32,000 bases of DNA from Cupriavidus necator (lineage in GTDB: Bacteria; Pseudomonadota; Gammaproteobacteria; Burkholderiales; Burkholderiaceae). The notes beneath the pieces were generated by a model. That model was not told the origin of the DNA, made no database searches, and saw only the letters and a list, made by a program, of their open reading frames with translations. Positions 1,513 through 28,514 of the stretch are shown piece after piece. Numbering within the stretch: the stretch's first letter is position 1; the number at the start of each line of letters is the position of its first letter. A program made the translations under genes and the position numbers. The DNA is taken from the NCBI RefSeq assembly GCF_016127575.1, contig NZ_CP066019.1:1590001-1622000 (forward strand), read 5' to 3'.

Positions 1513-2832
1513 TCAGGCTGGAACCTGCGTCCCCGCCGCCGCCGTCTCCTTCGAGAAAAGACTCCTGGAAGTCGCTACATGGCTGGCCAGCACCGGCCGC
1601 AAGACCATGATCGCCAGGAAGGCCGCGCTCAGGTCCATGGCCGCCACCGTGTAGAGGACCGTCGACCAGGTGCCGCTCGCCTCCATCATCAGGTTGCCGA
1701 CCGGCACGAACAGTGCGCCGATGCCCTTGGCCGTGTAGAGCACGCCATAGATCTTGCCGATGTGCTTGGTGCCGAAGGCATCGCCGGCCAGTGCCGAGAA
1801 CAGCGAGTAGACCTCGCCCCAGGCCAGGAACACCACGCCCGACAGGATCAGGAAGGCGTACGGGTTGCTGCCGAAGTAGCCGAGCGCGATGATGCCAAGG
1901 CCTTCCAGGGTGAAGGCGATGACCATGGTCTTCTCACGGCCGATGTTGTCCGAGATCCAGCCGAACAACGGACGCGAGATGCCGTTCATGATCCGGTCCA
2001 GCATCAGCGCGAGCGGCAGTGCGGCCATCACGAAGAAGTGCAGGTCGACCTTGAACTCCTTCACACCCAGGTCCTTGGCGATGACGCCAAGCTGGGCCAC
2101 GGCCATCATGCCGCCGGTGACGACCAGGATGAACATCACAAACATCAGCCAGAACAGCTTGGTGGACATCGCTTCCTTGAGCGTGTAGTCGCGCGTGGCC
2201 TGGACCAGCTTCTGCGATGCCTTCACCTCGCTACCCTTCGGTGCGCGCAGGAACCACGCCGCGACAAAGGCGAGTCCGCCCTGCAGCAGGCCGAAGAACA
2301 GGAAGGTGTGCTGGAAGCCCTGCGACTCGATCATGGCCGCGATGGGCAGGATGGTTGCCGCGGAACCGGCGCCGTAACCGCCCGCGGTCAGGCCCACCGC
2401 AAGGCCACGGCGGTCCGGGAACCACTTGAGCGCGTTGTTGATGCAGGTGGCGTAGATCGAGCCCACGCCAAGGCCGCCAACGGCTGCGCCGACGTAGAAG
2501 CCCATCAGGGTGGTGGCCTGGGAGTTGATGCACCACGCCGCGCCGATGAAGACCGCGCCGAAGGCGACCATCATGCGCGGGCCGAACTTGTCGATGAAGT
2601 AGCCTTCGATCGGCGCCAGCCAGGTCTGCACAAGGACGAAGACGGTGAAGGCGATCTGGATGCTGGCGCGCGACCAGCCGTAGGTACTCTGGATTTCAGG
2701 GACGAAAAGGGTCCAGGCGTATTGAATATTGGCGGTGGCGATCATGCAGATCACACCGACGATCAATTGCAGCCAGCGTGTGCCTTCCGGGACCTGGCGA
2801 TTAGCGCCCAGCGCTGCGGACGGATTACTCAT
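1513..2832 (-). CDS. MFS transporter, oxalate/formate antiporter (OFA) family
   Basis: 439-aa ORF that is hydrophobic throughout, with about 12 TM-like segments. The N-terminal 'RWLQLIVGVICMIATANIQYAWTLFVPEI' is typical of OFA/OxlT-like MFS proteins. AGGAG (rc of ctcct, 2841-2845) lies ~8 nt upstream of the ATG at 2832. Confidence 0.8.
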   Translation of the reverse strand: MSNPSAALGANRQVPEGTRWLQLIVGVICMIATANIQYAWTLFVPEIQSTYGWSRASIQIAFTVFVLVQTWLAPIEGYFIDKFGPRMMVAFGAVFIGAAWCINSQATTLMGFYVGAAVGGLGVGSIYATCINNALKWFPDRRGLAVGLTAGGYGAGSAATILPIAAMIESQGFQHTFLFFGLLQGGLAFVAAWFLRAPKGSEVKASQKLVQATRDYTLKEAMSTKLFWLMFVMFILVVTGGMMAVAQLGVIAKDLGVKEFKVDLHFFVMAALPLALMLDRIMNGISRPLFGWISDNIGREKTMVIAFTLEGLGIIALGYFGSNPYAFLILSGVVFLAWGEVYSLFSALAGDAFGTKHIGKIYGVLYTAKGIGALFVPVGNLMMEASGTWSTVLYTVAAMDLSAAFLAIMVLRPVLASHVATSRSLFSKETAAAGTQVPA

Positions 2833-3268
2833 TTGCGCGCTCCTTGAATCATTTGGCCATTCAGTTGCGGGGGTGCGGGCGGGTATGCGGACGCACTGCG
2901 CCTCAGCATAAGGGTGGCTGCTGGCATTTCATGTCTCCTGTGTCATTGGCATTTATTTGCCTCTTATTCCGACGCCGACCTGAGGTCTCCGCCCTCACCT
3001 CTCTCAAGTTCGGAGTGGCGATGGAATACACAGTATGTGATATATCAGGTAAGTCAAGGGAAAGGCATGGCAGGGTTTTCACTGAATTTATGATTGCGAA
3101 GGATGGGTTCCGGATATTCACGCTGAAAATGCATCATCGCCCCTGGAAGGAGGCCCGGCCGGGCACCGCCGGATAACCATGAAACCCTTTACTGGAGCCA
3201 CTTCCGGGCGCGTCGCCGCCGATAGATGAGGGTTCGTTTTGAATGGATGAGGAAAACGACTTAAATCC

Positions 3269-3362
3269 CATCATTACAAATTTGTCATACCCGGAAGCCG
3301 TCCGTTCCGGCCAGAACAGCATGATTACGAAAATGTCATGATTACAGAAATGTCATGATTTT
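3269..3362. repeat. 17-nt tandem repeat CATGATTAC(R)(R)AAATGT, about 2.4 head-to-tail copies at 3320-3362 plus a degenerate copy at 3269-3288
   Basis: Read directly: c-atgattacgaaaatgt / c-atgattacagaaatgt / c-atgatt at 3320-3360. A related copy, catcattacaaatttgtcat, sits at 3269-3288. All lie in the AT-rich spacer. Confidence 0.7.
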
Positions 3363-3430
3363 GACCGCACCGAATGATGAACGAAATAAATCAGAGCGAT
3401 TAATACGGCATAAAACCGCACCGGCGAGCC

Positions 3431-3462
3431 AAAAAAAATGCCCGCAGGCAAGCCTGGCGGGC
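3431..3462 (-). terminator. rho-independent terminator readable only on the minus strand (orphan)
   Basis: The minus strand reads GCCCGC-C-AGG CTTG CCT GCGGGC (9 bp with one bulge, tetraloop), followed by A then T8 (plus-strand A8 at 3431-3438). There is no T-run on the plus-strand side. Confidence 0.65.
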
Positions 3463-3573
3463 GTAGGCATGATGCGTGACATCAGCCGCAGCATGTAGAT
3501 GCAGTTATAGGCGATTATTCGGGCCAGACAAATAAATAAAAACGCTTAGCGCGGGGTGGCGGTCAGGGATTCT

Positions 3574-3616
3574 CGAAAACCCTGAGGGATTTACCGAAAA
3601 ACCCTGAGCGCGATTT
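3574..3616. repeat. direct repeat CGAAAA(A)CCCTGAG..GATTT x2
   Basis: cgaaaaccctgagggattt (3574-3592) and cgaaaaaccctgagcgcgattt (3595-3616). The first copy is also part of the inverted repeat TCAGGG-N11-CCCTGA. Confidence 0.6.
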
Positions 3617-3730
3617 GGCGAGATTCAGCAGATGGCAACTTGTCATGATGGATTTCGATTTGCTGGCCAGATGCGCTGCTGCCCGGGTCGGCAGGCAAGC
3701 ACTGTAGACAAGATCATCCAGGCTGCCCAT

Positions 3731-3870
3731 GAAAGTAGATGAAACGGTAAGTACTGTAGAACTCCTGGAAGCCCGGCGGCCAGGTTGCCCATCCATTGCT
3801 ATAGATAGAATGGAAAGCAGCAGGCATAGAAGTAGATCTTTTGGTAAGTTCTGTAGAAACTCTGGTAAGC
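3731..3870. repeat. pair of ~42-nt imperfect direct repeats immediately upstream of fic
   Basis: Copy A, 3731-3772: gaaagtagatgaaacggtaagtactgtagaactcctggaagc. Copy B, 3829-3870: gaagtagatcttttggtaagttctgtagaaactctggtaagc. Shared blocks are GTAGAT, GGTAAGT, CTGTAGAA and CTC(C)TGG. A third CTGTAGA lies near 3703. Confidence 0.65.
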
Positions 3871-3907
3871 TCCCGAGCAAACCGGCATCCGGAAATTGCG
3901 ACCATCT

Positions 3908-5431
3908 ATGTCTCATGCGCCACTTGGCTACGACGCGCTTATCCGCAAGTTCGGGCTGCGCGTGCCGCCGCTGCGCTCGACGTCCGCCCTTGCCGACAAG
4001 ACCGGGGTCCTCAGCACGCACACCGGACCGGACGGCACCACGCGCACCGTGTACCCAAGGAACCGCTACCGCGGCGGCGATACGACCGTGGACCACCTGA
4101 CTTTCGCGCTGAAGAAGGAGCAGCTCGACCTGACCGTGCTGGCGGCGCTGTTCGAACATGCGCCAGCGGTGCAGGCCGTACGGGAGTGGCTGGCGGCCAC
4201 CCCGACCTCGCGCTATGCGAGGCTGAGCGCGTTCTATGCCAAATGGCTTGCCGGAGCGCAATTCGACTACAAGCTGCCGGCCGGGGCGCCCAGGGTACTG
4301 GCGCTGGACGAGAGCCGGTACCTGACCGGCCCGGCAACGCCGGACCTGCAGTTCGGCATCCAGAACAACCACCTCGGCCCGGCCGCGTTTTGCCCCCTGG
4401 TGCGCCGCACCGAGAAGCTGGCGCAGTACATTGCCGCCGACCTCCCCGGCCGCGTGGCCGCGGCCATCAAGCGGCTCGAGCCAGAGTTGCTGGCGCGCGC
4501 GGTGGACTACCTCTACCTCGCGGAGACACGATCGACCTACTCCATCGAGCACGAGATCCCCGATAACCAGCGGGTTGCCAAGTTCAGGCGGCTGCTGGAA
4601 TATGCCGGCAATCCCGCGCCGTTGACCGAAGCCCAGCTGTGCGAGTGGCAGAACGAAATCATCTCGGGGCTGCGCGCCGAATTCTCCTACCGCGACAAGC
4701 AGAACTGGCTGTCCCGCGGCGGGCGCATGCGCAACATCGCTGACTATATTCCCCCGCCGCCCGGGCAGCTTGGCGCGATGATGGACGGGATTGCCGCGGT
4801 CGCGGGCCTGGTCGAGGCACAGGCGGCGAACCCCATCGTGGCCGCGGCGTGCGTATCGTTTGGCTTTGTCTTCGCCCACCCGTTCTACGACGGCAACGGC
4901 CGGCTCCATCGATTCCTCATCCACCATTTGCTGCGCCAGGCCGGTGTCACGCCAGATGGCGTCGTGCTGCCGGTGTCGGCACGGATGCTCAAGCAGATCG
5001 ATACCTATGCCGCGCTGCTGAAGTCCTATTCCGCCCCGCGGACGGCCCTGCTCAACTACGCGCTGGATTCGGACAGCGACACGATCCTGATCAAGTCGCC
5101 ACAGCCCGGCTGGCTTTACGCATCCTTTGATGCAACAGCGCTGTGCGAATTCGTCTTCGAATGCATCGAGCAGTGCGTCGAGCAGGACCTTGCGCAGGAG
5201 ATCCAGTACCTGCGCGCTTACGATGCCAGCGTCGCACGCCTGGAAAGCTGGCTCGACCTGCGCCAGTCACGCCTGTCGAACCTGATCGACCTGATCGTCC
5301 AGAACCACGGCGAGCTGTCCAGGCGCAAGCGCAAGCTGTTCGAAGACATCACGGACGACGAGCTCGCCCGCATTGAAGCCGTCGTGCGCGACGAATTCAC
5401 GGAATACCTCGAGCTCAACGGCAGCCGCTGA
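3908..5431 (+). CDS. Fic/DOC family protein (putative AMPylase/adenylyltransferase) with an extended N-terminus
   Basis: Canonical Fic motif HPFxDGNGRxxR is present as 'HPFYDGNGRLHR'. Upstream, 'AETRSTYSIEHE' looks like an inhibitory-helix motif, and 'YRDKQNWLSRGG...DYIPPPPGQL' is typical of Fic_N-type proteins. Track ORF is 3896..5431 (TTG at 3896); the first ATG is at 3908. Confidence 0.85.
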   Translation: MSHAPLGYDALIRKFGLRVPPLRSTSALADKTGVLSTHTGPDGTTRTVYPRNRYRGGDTTVDHLTFALKKEQLDLTVLAALFEHAPAVQAVREWLAATPTSRYARLSAFYAKWLAGAQFDYKLPAGAPRVLALDESRYLTGPATPDLQFGIQNNHLGPAAFCPLVRRTEKLAQYIAADLPGRVAAAIKRLEPELLARAVDYLYLAETRSTYSIEHEIPDNQRVAKFRRLLEYAGNPAPLTEAQLCEWQNEIISGLRAEFSYRDKQNWLSRGGRMRNIADYIPPPPGQLGAMMDGIAAVAGLVEAQAANPIVAAACVSFGFVFAHPFYDGNGRLHRFLIHHLLRQAGVTPDGVVLPVSARMLKQIDTYAALLKSYSAPRTALLNYALDSDSDTILIKSPQPGWLYASFDATALCEFVFECIEQCVEQDLAQEIQYLRAYDASVARLESWLDLRQSRLSNLIDLIVQNHGELSRRKRKLFEDITDDELARIEAVVRDEFTEYLELNGSR

Positions 5432-7016: not shown

Positions 7017-7101
7017 GCCTTGGAGCCTGTTCTCGCTTCCAAGACACATCCGAGCCGGTTCCCCGGCACACCTTACGAAAATTCAGATTCCCCAATCTCT
7101 A

Positions 7102-7128
7102 GTTAATAGGAATCATTCTGATTATAAT
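7102..7128 (+). promoter_or_regulatory. candidate Fur box in an AT-rich promoter region
   Basis: gttaataggaatcattctgattataat contains the AATCATT core and GATTAT/ATAAT hexamers of the Fur consensus GATAATGATAATCATTATC. By hand it matches roughly 13 of 19 positions. It lies ~60 nt upstream of the TonB-dependent receptor start. Confidence 0.4.
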
Positions 7129-7184
7129 TCGCGGGGTTTTCAAAAGCACATTAAACACATCACTACGTTCGCCTGACCATAACC

Positions 7185-9479
7185 ATGCAAACCGCAACGC
7201 GCTCAGTCACCCTGGAGGGGCCGGCCGGCCGCTTCCGGGTCCGTCCGCTCGCCCTTCTCATGGCCGCCATCGGCGCGGGCACTCCGCTGCTGTCAGAAGC
7301 ACAGGAGGTGGCCGCCGGCGCCGCCGTGGCACAAACCGGGACGTCCGGTGCGGGGGCGAAGCAGGAAGGCCCGACCGCTAAGGCCGACGGCGGCGAGCTG
7401 AATGCGGTGGAGGTCAGGGTCGACCGGATCAAGAGCGATCTCGTCAGCCCGACGCGCCAGGTGACGGTGCTGGAGCGCGAGGAAATCGAGGAGCTGAAGG
7501 TGGGCTCCACCAATCTCGCGACCATGCTGAGCAAGCTGATCCCGGGCATGGCGGACTCCAGCCGCACGGTCACGGACTTCGGCCAGACGCTGCGCGGGCG
7601 CGGCACGCTGATCCTGGTGGATGGCATTCCGCTCAACACCAACCGGGATTCGGCGCGCAACCTCGCCACCATCGATTCCAGCAACATCGAGAAGATCGAA
7701 GTCATGCGCGGCAGCAGCGCGATCTATGGCGCCGGCGCCAACGGCGGCATTATCGCGATCACCACGCGGCCCGCGGGCGGCGCGCCCAGCGCGGATACCA
7801 CGGTGACGCTCGGCACCCCGCTGACGCGGCTGAGCAAGGAAGGGCTCAGCGCCAATGTCCAGCAGCATTTTTCAGGCAGCCAGGGGCCGATCGACTACGC
7901 GTTCCACCTCGGCGCGCAGCGTATCGGCGGCTCCTACGACGCGCACGGCCACCGCATCGCGCCGGAGCCCAGCCAGGGCGACCTGTTCGATTCCAACGTC
8001 TACAACGTCAGCGGCAAGCTGGGCTGGCGCATCGACAGCCAGCAGCGCATCGAACTGAGCGTGAGCCAGTACCAGGCCAAGCAGAACACCGACTACGCCT
8101 CCGATCCGTCGGTGGCCAGGCTGACGCCGGGCACCGCCGCGGCGCGGGCGATCAAGGGGCTGCAGCTGGAAAACCAGAACGAACTGCGCAACACCGTGGT
8201 CAATCTGGGCTACCAGAACCTGGACCTGCTCGGCAGCACGGTGTCGACGCAGATCTACTACCGCGACTACTTCACCCGCTTCCCCCCGTTCGATGCGCGC
8301 GCGGTGGCCACGCGTGGCGGCAATGTGGACCAGGTCAGCCAGAACAGCGACGTGTTCGGCGGGCGCCTGACCATCAGCACCCCGCTGGGTGCCGACAAGA
8401 AGACCAAGCTGCTGTGGGGCGCTGACTACAACCAGGAGCGCAGCGACATGCCGCTCGACGTGTTCGATCCGCGCGCCTACGACCAGAGCGGCGGGCTGGT
8501 CTTCAACAAGACCGGTTCGCTGACCTACATGCCGCCGCTGACCACCCGCAGCGGCGGGATCTTCGGGCAGCTTCAGCACAAGTTCAACGAGCAGTGGTCG
8601 ATGGAAGGCGGCGCGCGCTATGAACGCGCCAGCGCCACGTTCGACGACTTCGTGCCGCTGTCGCAATCGCGGGTCAGCAACCCGGTCGCGGTCCAGGGCG
8701 GCACCGTCAACTACGGCGCGTGGCTCTTCAATATCGGCGGTGCGTACGCGCCGGTGAAGAACCAGGAGTTCTATGCCTCGTTCGGCCAGGGCTTCCAGTT
8801 GCCCGATATCGGCCTGCAGATCCGCAATGCGCGGCCGGGCTTCAATATCAATTCGTCGAGCCTTGAGCCGGTCAAGACCAACAACTATGAAATCGGCTGG
8901 CGCGGCGCATTCGGCAATACGATGGCGAGCCTGGCGCTGTTCTACACCACCTCGCAGCTGGGCGACGTGCAGAGCTTCAACAACGGCCTGATCCTGACCC
9001 GGACCAAGGAACGCATCGCAGGCGTTGAGGCTTCCGCCGACTACCTGAGCGACAGCGAGACCTGGGGCGCCGGCGGCACGTTCACCTGGATCAACGGCCG
9101 CGAGCAGCCGCAAGGCAGCAGCAGCTTCCAGAACATGACGGGCTATCGCATCCCGCCGCTGAAGCTGACCGCCTACGTCCAGTACCGGCCGATCAGCACT
9201 TGGAGCAACCGCCTGCAGGTGACCTACTACGGCGGCCGCGACTACCGGCTCAACGACCAGAACAGCTTCGGGCGGCGCGAGGTCAGCAGCTACACCACCG
9301 TCGACCTGATCAGCCGCTACCAGGTCAGCAAGAAGGACACGATCACGGTGGGGATCGAGAACCTGTTCAACCGCTACTACTACCCGTTGTACAGCCAGCT
9401 GATGCGCAACAGCAATAACACCAGCCGCCTGCCGGCTGCGGGCATCACGCTGACCGCGATGTACCAGCACCGCTGGTAA
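7185..9479 (+). CDS. TonB-dependent outer-membrane receptor (siderophore/metal-chelate type)
   Basis: 764 aa. It has a signal peptide, a plug-domain signature 'LILVDGIPLNTNRDS...IEKIEVMRGSSAIYGAGANGGII', a long G/Y/N-rich beta-barrel-like region, and a C-terminal aromatic residue '...YQHRW'. Confidence 0.9.
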   Translation: MQTATRSVTLEGPAGRFRVRPLALLMAAIGAGTPLLSEAQEVAAGAAVAQTGTSGAGAKQEGPTAKADGGELNAVEVRVDRIKSDLVSPTRQVTVLEREEIEELKVGSTNLATMLSKLIPGMADSSRTVTDFGQTLRGRGTLILVDGIPLNTNRDSARNLATIDSSNIEKIEVMRGSSAIYGAGANGGIIAITTRPAGGAPSADTTVTLGTPLTRLSKEGLSANVQQHFSGSQGPIDYAFHLGAQRIGGSYDAHGHRIAPEPSQGDLFDSNVYNVSGKLGWRIDSQQRIELSVSQYQAKQNTDYASDPSVARLTPGTAAARAIKGLQLENQNELRNTVVNLGYQNLDLLGSTVSTQIYYRDYFTRFPPFDARAVATRGGNVDQVSQNSDVFGGRLTISTPLGADKKTKLLWGADYNQERSDMPLDVFDPRAYDQSGGLVFNKTGSLTYMPPLTTRSGGIFGQLQHKFNEQWSMEGGARYERASATFDDFVPLSQSRVSNPVAVQGGTVNYGAWLFNIGGAYAPVKNQEFYASFGQGFQLPDIGLQIRNARPGFNINSSSLEPVKTNNYEIGWRGAFGNTMASLALFYTTSQLGDVQSFNNGLILTRTKERIAGVEASADYLSDSETWGAGGTFTWINGREQPQGSSSFQNMTGYRIPPLKLTAYVQYRPISTWSNRLQVTYYGGRDYRLNDQNSFGRREVSSYTTVDLISRYQVSKKDTITVGIENLFNRYYYPLYSQLMRNSNNTSRLPAAGITLTAMYQHRW

Positions 9480-24996: not shown

Positions 24997-25908
24997 ATGT
25001 CCACGCCCCTTCCCCGCTATGTCGTGTTCGGAGAAGCCCTGACCGACATGGTCCGCCAGGCCGACGGCAGCTGGCTGGGCCTGCCCGGCGGCTCATGCTG
25101 GAACGTGGCGCGCGTGGGCGCCCGGCTGGGCATTGCCACCGCCTTTGCGGGAGCCGTCAGCCAGGACCTGTTCGGCGATGACCTGGCCCAAGCCAGCGCT
25201 GACGCCGGCCTGGACAGCCGCTTCCTGCAGCGGGTGGCGCGCTCGCCGTTGCTGGCCTTTGTCGCGTCACGCCATCCGCCGCAGTACTTCTTTGTCGGCG
25301 ACGACAGCGCGGACCTGCATTTCGATCCGGCGCGCCTGCCAGAGGGCTGGCGCCAGGCGGCAGAGGTGATCCACTTCGGCTCCATCAGCCTGGTGCGCCA
25401 GCCGCTGGCGGCACGGCTGTGTGAAGAAGCCACGCTGGCCGCAACGGCGGGCAAGCGCATTGCCTTCGACCCCAACTTCCGGGACCTGATGCGCGCACCG
25501 GGCTACGCCAACGTCCTCGCACACATGCTGCGGCTGGCCAGCTACGTCAAGATCTCCGACGAAGACCTGGCCGGACTCTTTCCCACGCTCGATATCGACG
25601 CGGCACTGGCACAGGTACGCGCCATGGCGCCCGATGCAACCGTCATGCTGACGCGCGGCGCGCATGGCATGACGTTGCTCAAGGGCAGTATTGTCGTCGA
25701 GCAGCCCGCGCTCGCAGTTGATGTGGCCGACACCGTCGGCTGTGGCGATGCGGCGATGGGCGGCTGGATGGCCGGCGTGCTGTCCGGCGCGGCGGGCGAC
25801 CTTGCCGCGCAGGCGCGGCTGGCTGCCGCCGCGGCGGCAATTGCTGCGACCCGGGCCGGCGCGTATCCGCCGCGGCGCGAGGAAGTGGAAGAATTGCTGG
25901 CTGCCTGA
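24997..25908 (+). CDS. frcK: PfkB-family carbohydrate kinase (fructokinase)
   Basis: PfkB signature 'DTVGCGDAAMGG' near the C-terminus and 'GGSCWNVA' at the N-terminus. It is the last gene of the frc/zwf/pgi cluster. The symbol comes from recalled C. necator synteny. Confidence 0.75.
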   Translation: MSTPLPRYVVFGEALTDMVRQADGSWLGLPGGSCWNVARVGARLGIATAFAGAVSQDLFGDDLAQASADAGLDSRFLQRVARSPLLAFVASRHPPQYFFVGDDSADLHFDPARLPEGWRQAAEVIHFGSISLVRQPLAARLCEEATLAATAGKRIAFDPNFRDLMRAPGYANVLAHMLRLASYVKISDEDLAGLFPTLDIDAALAQVRAMAPDATVMLTRGAHGMTLLKGSIVVEQPALAVDVADTVGCGDAAMGGWMAGVLSGAAGDLAAQARLAAAAAAIAATRAGAYPPRREEVEELLAA

Positions 25909-26138
25909 AGGGCCGGCGACAGGAGCCGCAAGCGATCAGCAACGGAAAAGCCGGAGCCAGCAAGGAAAGCCCTTTGGGAAAGCTCTGAATATGCGCCAGA
26001 TTTCCAGAAAATAACCTCCTCGTTACATTGTCGGTGGCAAAGTGATGTGCTAACCAGACGGGCCTTGGCCACAGACAAACGTTGTTCGGGCGTCCTATGG
26101 ACGTACGAAACTATGCAAGCGGTCGGGCTCGCTATACT

Positions 26139-26153
26139 TATCACACTGTGATA
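26139..26153 (+). promoter_or_regulatory. perfect palindrome (candidate autoregulatory operator) just upstream of the two-gene cassette
   Basis: TATCACA-C-TGTGATA ends 8 nt before ATG 26162. It is preceded by a -10-like TATACT (26133-38). No Shine-Dalgarno sequence is visible, which implies a very short leader. Confidence 0.5.
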
Positions 26154-26161
26154 GCATACCT

Positions 26162-26515
26162 ATGCGCGACCGTAGCCTCGACACACTATTGGACCTGGAT
26201 GGGCTCCGCTTCGTCATGGATGACGAAAGCTTGCATTGGGTGAAAATCGTGGTGCGCACCTGCGCTGTCTCGCAGGAACGCCCTCACGGACTGAGGTATT
26301 CGCTGACACTGCATGACAGGATTGGCTGCCGTTTGCTTGGCTTTGACAATGCGCACGGCATCAATGAGGGATCCGGGCCAGGAGTGCGGACGCGCATTGA
26401 ATACGACCACCAGCACATGGCGGCGGGCGTTCGATTCTACGGCTACCACGATGCTTCCACGTTGCTGGAAGATTTCTGGACAGAGGTCGACAAGATCCTG
26501 CAGCAAAAGGAGTGA
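26162..26515 (+). CDS. small protein, DUF6516/TumE-like candidate toxin (tentative)
   Basis: 117-aa ORF in a lower-GC islet. 'LRYSLTLHDRIGCRLLGFDNAHGI....EYDHQH' resembles the 'Y..H....G.L..R.DNAPHH....HHKH' pattern I recall for DUF6516-type proteins, which pair with COG4190-type regulators. The stop abuts the next start. Confidence 0.55.
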   Translation: MRDRSLDTLLDLDGLRFVMDDESLHWVKIVVRTCAVSQERPHGLRYSLTLHDRIGCRLLGFDNAHGINEGSGPGVRTRIEYDHQHMAAGVRFYGYHDASTLLEDFWTEVDKILQQKE

Positions 26516-26881
26516 ATGATGAGCGGCAACCTCAAGATTGGCATCGCCTCACTGGACGACTTCAAGGCCCGCACCATGGCGATCGCCCGCGGCAAACTCA
26601 AGCCCGGAAAGGATGAGCCCAAGGTCTGGTTTCAATCGCTGGACGTGCTGGCAAAGGTCCTGTCCCCAGCCAATCGCCAATTGCTTGCGCTGATCGCGGA
26701 AACGAATCCTGAATCGCTCGAAGAGCTATCGCAAAAAACCGGACGGGCCGTGTCGAACCTGTCGCGGACACTCCGCACGATGGAGGGCTATGGCTTGATT
26801 CACTTTGAACAAGGGCCACGCCGCAGGCTTGCTCCGCGCGTTGACTACAGCGGCGTGGAGCTTGAGCTTGCTTTTCACTAG
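26516..26881 (+). CDS. winged-helix DNA-binding protein (COG4190 / HVO_A0114-like), candidate antitoxin/regulator
   Basis: 121 aa. 'NRQLLALIAETNPESLEELSQKTGRAVSNLSRTLRTMEGYGLI' is a clear wHTH. The N-terminal 'IASLDDFKARTMAIARG' and C-terminal 'PRVDYSGVELEL' match the architecture I recall for this family. The ATG follows the upstream TGA directly. Confidence 0.7.
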   Translation: MMSGNLKIGIASLDDFKARTMAIARGKLKPGKDEPKVWFQSLDVLAKVLSPANRQLLALIAETNPESLEELSQKTGRAVSNLSRTLRTMEGYGLIHFEQGPRRRLAPRVDYSGVELELAFH

Positions 26882-27041
26882 CGTCCGCTGACATGATTGG
26901 CTGCATGGCCCGCGCGCTTGCCACTACAGCAGGAACGCCGGCCACAGCAGCTGCCCGGGGTTGAGCGCCGCGAAACTGCTGCTCTTGAGCAGGCGGCAAT
27001 GTCCGGGCGGCAAATACTCTCAACGACGCGATCACCCCGAG

Positions 27042-27058
27042 CCATGCGCCACGCGCAT
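27042..27058 (+). promoter_or_regulatory. LysR-type T-N11-A dyad (candidate regulator binding site)
   Basis: CATGCGC-CAC-GCGCATG is a perfect 7-bp inverted repeat that contains T-N11-A (TGCGCCACGCGCA). It lies ~130 nt upstream of the MHS transporter start. Confidence 0.4.
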
Positions 27059-27188
27059 GCATTCATGCGGAGATATCGCTACCGTCTGCGCCCCGCCTTC
27101 TCCTAACATCAGCTGCACCATCTGCCCGGCCGGCCTGAGACGACACCGGCCCTTGCCCCCGGCAGCTGTCACAGAGGAGGAAACACCC

Positions 27189-28514
27189 ATGCAAAACAGC
27201 GCTGCGCCAACGAGCGCGCCCTACACACCGGCTGCGCCAGCGGCGCCCGCCATCCAGCCCAGCCAGCGCCGCCGCGCCATCATCGCGACGGTGATCGGCA
27301 ATGGCCTGGAATGGTTCGATTTCACCGTCTACAGCTTCTTCGCGGTCATCATCGCGAAGCTGTTCTTTCCCACCGGCGACGACCTCAGCTCGCTGCTGCT
27401 GGCCGTGGCCACCTTCGGCGTGGGCTTCTTCATGCGCCCGGTGGGCGGCATCGTGCTGGGCATCTACGCCGACCGCGTGGGCCGCAAGGCGGCACTGTCG
27501 CTGACCATCCTGCTGATGGCGCTCGGCACCACGCTGATCGGCATTGCGCCCACATACGACCAGATCGGCCTCTTCGCCCCGCTGCTGATCGTGGTGGCGC
27601 GCCTGATGCAGGGCTTCTCCGCCGGCGGCGAGATGGGCGGCGCCACCGCCTTCCTGACCGAGTACGCCCCGGCGCGCCAGCGTGCCTACTACTCCAGCTG
27701 GATCCAGGCCAGCATCGGCGTGGCCGTGCTGCTGGGCGCGGCGGTGGGCACCTTCGTCACCAGTTCGCTGAGCACCGAGGCACTCAACAGCTGGGGCTGG
27801 CGCCTGCCGTTCCTGCTGGGCATCGTGATCGGCCCGGTGGGCTACTACATCCGCCACCACCTCGATGAAACCCCGACCTTCCGCGACAACGCCGAGCGCG
27901 CCGATTCACCGCTCAAGGAAATCGTGCAGGCCTACCCGCGCGAGACCCTGGCCAGCTTCTCGATGGTGATCCTGTGGACGGTGTGCACCTATGTGCTGCT
28001 GTTCTACATGCCGACCTACGCGGTCAAGGTGCTGAAGGTGCCGCAGGCCGATGGCTTTATCGCCGGCATGGCGGGCGGCAGTGCCATCATGGTGTTCGCG
28101 CCGCTGGTGGGCCTGCTGGCCGACCGCATCGGCCGGCGCGTGCTGCTGAGCGGCTCGGCGCTGCTGATCCTGGTGCTGGCGTGGCCGATGTTCGCGTATA
28201 TCAACCATGCGCCCGGCCTGGCTTCGCTGCTGGTATTCCAGCTGGTGTTCGGCGTGCTGATCGCCACCTATACCGGCCCGATCCTGGCGGCGTTCTCCGA
28301 ACTGTTCCCGGCGCGCGTGCTGTCGACCGGCCTGTCGGTGGCCTACAACTTCGCGGTGACGATCTTCGGTGGCTTTGCCTCGTTCATCATCACCTGGCTG
28401 ATCGCCACCACCGGCAGCAGCATGGCCCCGGCCATCTACGTGATGATCGCCGCCGCCATCAGCCTGGTCGGCACCCGCTTCGTGCGCGAACCTTCCTACC
28501 TGCAACAACGCTGA
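27189..28514 (+). CDS. MFS transporter, metabolite:H+ symporter (MHS) family
   Basis: 'GNGLEWFDFTVYSFF' and 'DRVGRKAALSLTILLMALGT' are typical of MHS (ProP/KgtP-like) carriers. GAGGAGGA lies upstream of ATG 27189. The track extension from TTG 26961 is not protein-like. Confidence 0.85.
   Translation: MQNSAAPTSAPYTPAAPAAPAIQPSQRRRAIIATVIGNGLEWFDFTVYSFFAVIIAKLFFPTGDDLSSLLLAVATFGVGFFMRPVGGIVLGIYADRVGRKAALSLTILLMALGTTLIGIAPTYDQIGLFAPLLIVVARLMQGFSAGGEMGGATAFLTEYAPARQRAYYSSWIQASIGVAVLLGAAVGTFVTSSLSTEALNSWGWRLPFLLGIVIGPVGYYIRHHLDETPTFRDNAERADSPLKEIVQAYPRETLASFSMVILWTVCTYVLLFYMPTYAVKVLKVPQADGFIAGMAGGSAIMVFAPLVGLLADRIGRRVLLSGSALLILVLAWPMFAYINHAPGLASLLVFQLVFGVLIATYTGPILAAFSELFPARVLSTGLSVAYNFAVTIFGGFASFIITWLIATTGSSMAPAIYVMIAAAISLVGTRFVREPSYLQQR

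Follow-up and report, generated by a model that had tools for sequence, protein, structure and literature searches.

The TumE-TumA pairs (DUF6516/PF20126), defined as a toxin-antitoxin (TA) family by Durairaj et al. (Nature 2023; PMC10584680), are the closest described counterpart of the two-gene cassette reported here, which was found in a 32,000-nt stretch of Cupriavidus necator DNA (NZ_CP066019.1, positions 1,590,001 to 1,622,000; the window). The window is part of chromosome 2 of C. necator H16 (AM260480.1), on which the identical 117-aa protein encoded by the first gene maps at ~1.6907 Mb. In the experiments described in that paper, six gammaproteobacterial DUF6516 proteins of subcluster 1a stopped the growth of E. 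coli and were rescued by their partners, and one validated TumE lowered the incorporation of 35S-Met; an RNase activity was proposed and is unproven (PMC10584680). The toxin gene lies downstream of its partner in the validated pairs as well as in the paper's clusters 1, 2, 4 and 6, and in the supplement the accession of the validated antitoxin comes immediately before that of the toxin in most cases. As for the validated partners, they are small and carry the annotation 'hypothetical', one class being a remote RelB homologue, and they are not described as winged-helix proteins. The published TumE fold consists of two helices on an antiparallel seven-strand sheet, with no confident PDB match (PMC10584680). 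The original prediction for this locus, made from the letters of the window, had called the family poorly studied and of unknown mechanism. As far as the published account goes, the family is not wholly obscure, since TumE-TumA was validated in 2023 as translation-targeting. A literature search found no paper on the TumE mechanism after 2023.

A toxin gene in first position is also found in higBA, mqsRA and hicAB, which are type II TA systems with a helix-turn-helix (HTH) antitoxin. The H16 pair resembles them in this gene order and in having a DNA-binding antitoxin candidate expected to repress at a palindromic operator that overlaps the promoter. It differs from them in the unrelated fold and family of the toxin, in the ArsR/MarR-like winged helix with an N-terminal extension that takes the place of an Xre-type HTH, and in the control of the toxin/antitoxin ratio, which here appears to operate via a toxin cistron that is leaderless or lacks a Shine-Dalgarno (SD) sequence and an SD-led antitoxin cistron. 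With TumE-TumA, as published, the H16 pair shares the Pfam toxin family, a predicted alpha+beta fold without a PDB relative, a bicistronic arrangement with a predicted DNA-binding partner, and a patchy, mobile distribution. Unlike in the validated TumE-TumA pairs, the toxin gene comes first, both in H16 and in all 83 homologous loci recovered, and the partner is a 120-aa winged helix-turn-helix (wHTH) protein of the HVO_A0114 family, in contrast to the small hypothetical proteins reported as validated partners.

We propose that the H16 pair is probably a toxin-first type II TA module of the TumE family, carried in a ~1-kb indel between frcK and an MFS transporter gene. Knowledge of the toxin family goes back to 2023, and its members are already labelled in public databases. 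The H16-type subfamily extends this family; it is no new kind of system. What appears to be new in the H16-type pair is the toxin-first order, the HVO_A0114 antitoxin candidate, a putative operator embedded in the promoter and the asymmetry of the translation signals. The operator, this leaderless/SD asymmetry and a DHxH motif are described here for the H16-type pair and are not drawn from the published account of TumE-TumA.

The two protein families and their pairing

The original prediction had placed two abutting open reading frames (ORFs) in the cassette, 26162-26515 (117 aa; ORF A, here tumE) and 26516-26881 (121 aa; ORF B), and had named a family for each. Both ORFs are present, and profile hidden Markov model searches agree with both assignments. 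ORF A passes Pfam PF20126 (TumE, formerly DUF6516) with 26.1 bits at a cut-off of 23.4 (E 8.5e-6, model positions 11-80 of 81), and ORF B matches PF25212 (HVO_A0114) with 74.4 bits at a cut-off of 27.6. NCBIfam has no model matching ORF A and gave generic HTH matches only for ORF B. Every one of the 2797 clusters (90% identity) of ORF A relatives is flagged PF20126, and those that are named carry the NCBI label 'toxin-antitoxin system TumE family protein'. The relatives of ORF B form 3118 clusters and go under the NCBI name 'HVO_A0114 family putative DNA-binding protein'. When a TumE profile was run against 1.84 billion cluster representatives, 1069 clusters were recovered at E<=1e-3.

Residues H51, D62-N-A-H65 and D82-H-x-H85 are invariant in the TumE subfamily, and the two motifs that they mark in the H16 protein, FDNAH (61-65) and DHQH (82-85), had been taken together in the original prediction as the sign of a TumE-like protein. 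Both motifs are indeed there; only the first extends beyond the H16-type subfamily. A haloarchaeal TumE (a 54.8-bit PF20126 member), aligned to our subfamily profile by hhalign with 93% probability, shares the DNAH motif and is without the DHxH segment, and DHxH is therefore subfamily-specific. The AlphaFold2 (AF2) model of TumE (predicted local distance difference test, pLDDT, 77; pTM 0.74) has a helix at 4-12, six DSSP strands and a helix at 98-116; its confidence is low at 69-73 and 85-87, and a seventh strand may be missed. The TumE profile gave 0 matches to PDB sequences, and a Foldseek search of the PDB with the model returned only noise (best E 0.48, template-modelling score 0.28). TumE is among the few toxin families found from 'dark' protein space, and no solved structure is present in the 2026 PDB copy.

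The AF2 model of the wHTH protein (pLDDT 84) can be superposed through its C-terminal 70-80 residues on the winged helices of ArsR/SmtB/MarR repressors. The Foldseek matches include YgaV (3cuo, E 7.5e-4), SmtB (1r23) and MexR (1lnw), with E up to 1e-2 and probability 1.0, and the sequence similarity to these repressors is weak (E ~0.1). As for these repressors, binding of a dimer to an inverted repeat would be expected from the modelled C-terminal fold. Unlike them, the wHTH protein has a conserved N-terminal extension of 40 residues without a structural match, no identified metal or ligand motif, and a constant pairing with TumE. A literature search on the HVO_A0114 family and on the H16 locus found nothing.

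If its first ATG is used, ORF B spans 26516-26881 (121 aa) and its junction with tumE reads gagTGAATGatg. The functional start is probably the second ATG at 26519, giving 120 aa, because the SD AAGGAG is 6 nt away from it, the first ATG is replaced by ACG in C. taiwanensis, and the start of the C. oxalaticus-type alleles corresponds to 26519. This refines the ORF boundary given originally.

The pairing of the two families is constant in the material compared. In all 83 loci recovered with the TumE profile (80 from metagenomes and 3 from IMG/VR), tumE is followed immediately and on the same strand by the wHTH gene. Among 72,556 PLSDB plasmids, TumE is found on 33 and the wHTH gene on 39, and the bacterial records overlap almost completely. 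The plasmid TumE genes examined share the downstream wHTH partner, the apparent exception being that of Lichenicola, which has a more divergent MarR-type partner. The same families in the same order are also found on a Haloarcula pelagica plasmid (L189), where the partner is homologous to ORF B over its full length (98.6% probability in hhalign, compared with the 93% for TumE). Unlike the H16-type pair, the haloarchaeal one lacks DHxH and has 23 nt between its genes, and its promoter architecture necessarily differs in archaea.

Decay of the pair is one-sided. A broken tumE beside an intact wHTH gene occurs in three lineages: in C. taiwanensis CBM2634 there is a +1 frameshift just before the DHxH motif; on pSymA of S. 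meliloti 1021 there is a frameshift at the SLTLHD motif, with multi-piece TumE matches on other Sinorhizobium plasmids; and on the P. phenoliruptrix pSym only the last third of tumE remains. An intact tumE without the wHTH gene was not found among the loci and plasmids examined. This asymmetry is as expected of a toxin and its antidote, and is no proof of toxicity.

Table 1. Features of the cassette and its borders (window coordinates; strand "." where none applies)
Feature	Position	Strand	Basis or remark
Left copy of the diverged flanking direct repeat	25890..25933	.	Overlaps the frcK 3' end and stop codon
Low-GC, non-coding 5' part of the islet	25934..26137	+	Enclosing intergenic region 25909-26161 has a GC of 0.534
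TATACT, -10-like box	26133..26138	+	Sequence; in H16 and C. alkaliphilus
Putative operator TTATCA-cactg-TGATAG, predicted wHTH-dimer site	26138..26154	.	Conservation and covariation
Candidate extended -10, TG-a-TAGCAT	26149..26157	+	In the right operator arm; homologous to the family-wide TGATAAyAT
tumE, TumE/DUF6516-family protein, putative toxin, 117 aa, no SD	26162..26515	+	Pfam PF20126
SD AAGGAG of the wHTH gene	26507..26512	+	Inside the last codons of tumE
HVO_A0114-family wHTH, putative antitoxin/autorepressor, 120 aa (121 from the ATG at 26516)	26519..26881	+	Pfam PF25212
Right copy of the flanking direct repeat	26911..26954	.	Relic of the ancestral overlap of the frcK and UCP029691 3' ends

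Operator, promoter and translation signals

The perfect palindrome TATCACA-C-TGTGATA noted in the original prediction is located at 26139-26153, ending 8 nt before the ATG at 26162, and is unique in the window even when 3 mismatches are allowed. A lone 7+1+7 palindrome could be due to chance. The element (G)TTATCA-N5-TGATAA(C), scored at >=9/12 matches, lies upstream of tumE in 67 of 69 distinct homologous loci, which indicates more than chance. Its arms are invariant across Cupriavidus, where the sole substitution affects the central unpaired base (L005/L014, one C. alkaliphilus strain). The best available evidence that ORF B reads this operator is a covariation between the half-site and the protein. 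All six loci with the half-site GTTA(A/C)C carry Ser at wHTH position 80, and none of the ~57 GTTATC loci does; H16 has Asn there. Residue 80 is among the first of the predicted recognition helix (residues ~79-91). We strongly infer from this comparison that ORF B binds the operator DNA.

The promoter is best defined at the level of the family. Its layout comprises a -35 box TTGACx, a 17-nt spacer, a TG-preceded -10 box TAAyAT, ~6 nt and the start codon, and the last bases of the right operator arm are the beginning of the -10 box. The -35 box (>=4/6 matches) was found in 42 of 69 loci, 37 of these 42 having the 17-nt spacing. The distance from the -10 box to the tumE start has its mode at 6 nt (25 loci) and is 5-8 nt in 45 of 67 loci, so that transcription would be expected to start on the tumE start codon. 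The box TATACT, which the original prediction had proposed as the -10 element, is present in H16; it is probably not the functional -10 box and was rejected as such, being replaced by GTACCT in C. necator EM36 (L015) and by GGACTC and GGACTA in L023 and L017, respectively. The candidate extended -10 box in the right operator arm (Table 1) is the H16 counterpart of the family element. A general promoter and terminator scan found no canonical sigma-70 promoter, and no intrinsic terminator 3' of the pair.

The translation signals of the two genes differ throughout the family. Ahead of tumE, 5 of 74 loci show an SD-like motif, for the most part those where the spacing is longer; ahead of the wHTH gene, 73 of 74 do. 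The absence of an SD before tumE in H16, claimed originally, was confirmed by sequence. The genes overlap by 4 nt (ATGA) in 50 of 74 distinct loci and by 8 nt in 7 of 74; the H16 genes abut (TGAATG). It is inferred that the tumE message in H16 is leaderless or nearly so. The original claim of an autoregulated, near-leaderless operon is thus supported for the family by the operator, the covariation, the SD asymmetry and the 6-nt mode, and fits H16 itself less well, with its short -10 spacing and poor -35 box. It should be mentioned that in four metagenomic loci (L128, L135, L140, L146) the operator ends at the only available ATG (GTTATCAtccggTGATAAC-ATG), so that a -10 box in its usual place would run into the start codon; these loci have either a different promoter, for which the left arm TATCAT would also make a good -10 box, or a mis-assigned start codon.

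From this comparative geometry, a scheme for the operation of the module can be proposed. One promoter would serve both genes, with the 17-bp inverted repeat TTATCA-N5-TGATA(A/G) occupying its spacer and -10 box. A wHTH dimer would bind this operator via the predicted recognition helix, with Asn80 near its start, and repress the operon. The SD-less and (nearly) leaderless tumE would be translated poorly, and the wHTH gene, with a strong SD inside the 3' end of tumE, would be translationally coupled to it; the antitoxin would therefore outnumber the toxin despite the leading position of the toxin gene. The wHTH protein would neutralise TumE by direct binding, probably through its 40-residue N-terminal extension; the strict co-occurrence and the translational coupling of the two genes are in keeping with such a complex. 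Freed TumE would arrest growth by inhibiting translation, possibly as an RNase acting through H51, D62-N-A-H65 and D82-H-x-H85, judging by its distant homology to the six TumE toxins validated in E. coli. For the DNA that harbours it, the module would then be an addiction or stabilisation cassette.

The SD asymmetry could potentially play a further role as a sensor of the translational state of the cell. If so, conditions that favour leaderless initiation or weaken SD-dependent initiation would tip the balance toward TumE and set off growth arrest with no need for antitoxin proteolysis, and stress-altered ribosomes, low temperature, some antibiotics or phage takeover would be candidate triggers. 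We regard this extension as speculative and unlikely.

The islet in Cupriavidus and its mobile relatives

The cassette is preceded directly by a block of fructose ABC transporter, zwf, pgi and PfkB-kinase (frcK) genes and followed by MFS transporter, amidohydrolase and LysR genes, both blocks being on the strand of the cassette. The lower G+C content (GC) seen in the original prediction is evident: the islet at 25934-26910 (0.98 kb) has a GC of 0.563, compared with 0.666 over the entire window (sd 0.038 among segments of the same size as the islet), and the local value drops from 0.68-0.70 to 0.55-0.60. The GC at third codon positions is 0.70-0.71 in the two cassette genes and 0.82-0.91 in adjacent genes. 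The non-coding 5' part of the islet (Table 1) is kept in C. alkaliphilus with a 40-bp indel and is swapped for unrelated sequence in the C. oxalaticus-type loci, in which homology begins at 26137/26138, exactly at the operator. An Rfam scan of 25800-27300 at E<=1 found no RNA family. No conserved ORF upstream of tumE was found in H16 or in the compared Cupriavidus loci. A hidden upstream antitoxin ORF was considered and rejected on the grounds of the 40-bp indel and the replacement just described, and also because the operator on an Enterobacter plasmid falls inside the 3' end of the upstream ORF.

With frcK as anchor, the genus was surveyed for the pair among GTDB species representatives. In 7 Cupriavidus representatives, including C. 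alkaliphilus, C. oxalaticus and other C. necator-like strains, the pair comes after frcK, and it is missing at the same site in at least 18 others, so that it is not universally conserved there. The usual order without the pair is frcK, a convergent UCP029691 gene and the MFS gene; frcK is directly beside the MFS gene in strain UYPR2.512, and L021 has a clean frcK-MFS junction. This presence/absence polymorphism at an identical site, together with the mobile settings of homologues described below, agrees with the mobile islet that was originally predicted. The UCP029691-family gene (237 aa, minus strand) precedes the MFS gene in C. alkaliphilus, C. oxalaticus, C. nantongensis and others (6762-7475 in L003, 6911-7621 in L024; the corresponding H16 interval is 26882-27188). 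H16 has lost this gene, and only a relic of its 3' end is left (~26911-26954).

The islet is flanked by a diverged direct repeat. A repeat search of the window pairs 25909-25933 with 26934-26958, and H16 25800-25933 and 26911-26954 both align to 6894-6938 of L024 (C. nantongensis, without the pair); the right copy is 84% identical to this segment and 87% to L026. In pair-bearing genomes, ~30-45 bp of the pair-less site are thus present on both sides of the insert. The repeats were not accepted as proof of the polarity of the event, since insertion with target duplication and loss by recombination between repeats fit them equally well. Between species (26162-26881 compared with L003, L009 and L010), the DNA of the pair is 93-98% identical, and that of the flanking high-GC genes 88-93%; we conclude that the pair is old, vertically inherited and constrained within the Cupriavidus clade. 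Its GC has not drifted toward that of the genome. The C. oxalaticus-type alleles are 78% identical to H16 in DNA. In L017/L023 (~7050-7790), TumE is 67-68% and the wHTH protein 88% identical to H16, with unrelated DNA upstream of the operator; the unequal divergence suggests either faster evolution of the toxin or a recombinant allele.

The location of the pair between two metabolic gene blocks, on the same strand as both, raises the question of whether the wHTH protein is a local regulator of the frc sugar genes or of the downstream MFS/amidohydrolase genes, the pair being part of one operon. The survey effectively refutes this possibility: the pair is absent from at least 18 representatives that keep frcK, several of them with the MFS/amidohydrolase genes adjoining. 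In addition, plasmids and archaea carry this pair in settings unrelated to the H16 one, the window contains a single copy of the operator, and a LysR regulator already accompanies the MFS/amidohydrolase genes.

Elsewhere, homologues have as neighbours a tyrosine integrase, transposases, another TA pair, conjugation genes and a serine recombinase. On the Enterobacter hormaechei IncR plasmid pCAV1668-85 (L175, 2938-5329), a recombinase gene lies directly 3' of the pair; its 548-aa product is a large serine recombinase by Pfam, and the gene overlaps the wHTH gene by 4 nt. A recombinase-family gene likewise directly follows the pair on the Haloarcula plasmid (L189, 2166-3765), and on a Paracoccus plasmid (L188) a recombinase gene adjoins the wHTH gene on the opposite strand. 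TumE, wHTH and recombinase genes may thus form a recurrent three-gene mobile unit; that the trio with the serine recombinase is a self-stabilising unit shared across domains of life is a reading to which we give little credence. The Enterobacter and Klebsiella copies are found on clinical IncR plasmids and adjoin trbG/trbI. In L178 and L180 (5600-9200), contigs of the same species, the left flank and the pair are identical and the right flank differs, with a tyrosine integrase overlapping the wHTH 3' end in one variant and SbcCD in the other, which places the pair at the edge of a variable or integrated element. The symbiotic plasmid of C. taiwanensis (L191, 2453-3165) bears a second, much more divergent TumE-wHTH pair, 38% and 48% identical to the H16 proteins, with the genes of an SNF2-related and an ATP-binding protein on either side; there are thus at least two paralogous modules in the genus.

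Defence is a role of many type II TA systems, and the original prediction had allowed for a defence cassette. The pair could be a TA module biochemically and serve primarily in abortive infection, with TumE released upon phage infection. Some neighbours have a defence-like character: an HNH endonuclease and a 1269-aa protein on the viral contig L172, where the remaining neighbours are other unknowns and the context is uninformative; the SNF2-related and ATP-binding proteins in L191; SbcCD in L180; and PhdYeFM-PIN nearby in L183. These do not amount to a consistent defence-island context among the examined loci, and the neighbours in H16 are sugar-metabolism and transporter genes. PADLOC-DB 2.0 gave nothing for TumE and only weak generic wHTH similarity (Csa3/CARF-type) for its partner. 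No homologue was found in 50,697 cultured phages, and only 3 of 2.9 million IMG/VR contigs contain one. The defence role therefore finds no support in these searches, and we consider it improbable as the primary function.

The lowest GC of the window is found away from the cassette, in a largely non-coding stretch of ~1 kb (~0.50-0.53 over ~2600-3900) between an MFS gene (minus strand, 1513-2832) and a 511-aa ORF (3896-5431). This ORF has a Fic-type HPFxxGNGR motif (AHPFYDGNGRLHR), and 2850-5431 may be another acquired element.

Toxicity, and the meaning of the pair for H16 and its family

The H16-type pair displays a number of the general traits of type II TA systems: small co-directional and coupled genes, a patchy distribution, association with mobile DNA, and presence/absence polymorphism. 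Several observations weigh against a toxin-antitoxin assignment. The toxicity of the H16-type TumE is deduced by distant homology to the validated toxins, the match to PF20126 being marginal at 2.7 bits over the threshold. In the published experiments, toxicity was demonstrated for gammaproteobacterial subcluster 1a only, with small antitoxins encoded upstream (PMC10584680), and the gene order here is the reverse. NCBI naming does not give the wHTH partner an antitoxin label, and the broken tumE genes could reflect ordinary pseudogenisation. The Asn80/Ser covariation represents only ~2 independent events, as L174 is only distantly related to the other five Ser loci. In H16 itself, no more than 4 nt separate the candidate -10 box from the ATG, and the -35 box (TCGCTA) is a poor one. 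Finally, the pair has not been recently mobile at the H16 site, judging from its conservation between species, and could have a domesticated regulatory role.

Much of this would be accommodated if the pair were autoregulated and non-toxic, with the wHTH protein an ordinary repressor and the TumE-like protein a small enzyme, sensor or co-regulator. Such a pair would be consistent with toxicity being reported in the published account for subcluster 1a only and with the marginal Pfam score, with stable vertical retention at one chromosomal site and a DNA conservation above that of the neighbours, with the annotation of the partner merely as a DNA-binding protein, and with the lack of a match to the PADLOC and NCBIfam toxin models. 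It leaves unexplained why tumE is never found without the wHTH gene, yet the wHTH gene persists beside a broken tumE in three lineages; why the operon appears designed to starve tumE of translation in favour of its partner; and why the distribution is patchy and linked to mobile elements. We consider the non-toxic alternative rather unlikely for these reasons, and retain the toxin-first TA module as our proposal for the H16 pair.

The H16-type subfamily, with ~2,800 clusters, pairs the TumE toxin family with a different type of antitoxin candidate in the opposite gene order. It offers testable handles in the 17-bp operator, the predicted specificity-determining residue Asn80, the conserved His/Asp residues as catalytic candidates, and the translation asymmetry. 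C. necator H16 is a major chassis for CO2-based and polyhydroxyalkanoate biotechnology, where the loss of plasmids is a practical difficulty; plasmids could therefore be stabilised with a native addiction module, or the module might need to be deleted in streamlined strains. The relatives of the pair on clinical Enterobacter and Klebsiella IncR plasmids may aid in the maintenance of these plasmids.

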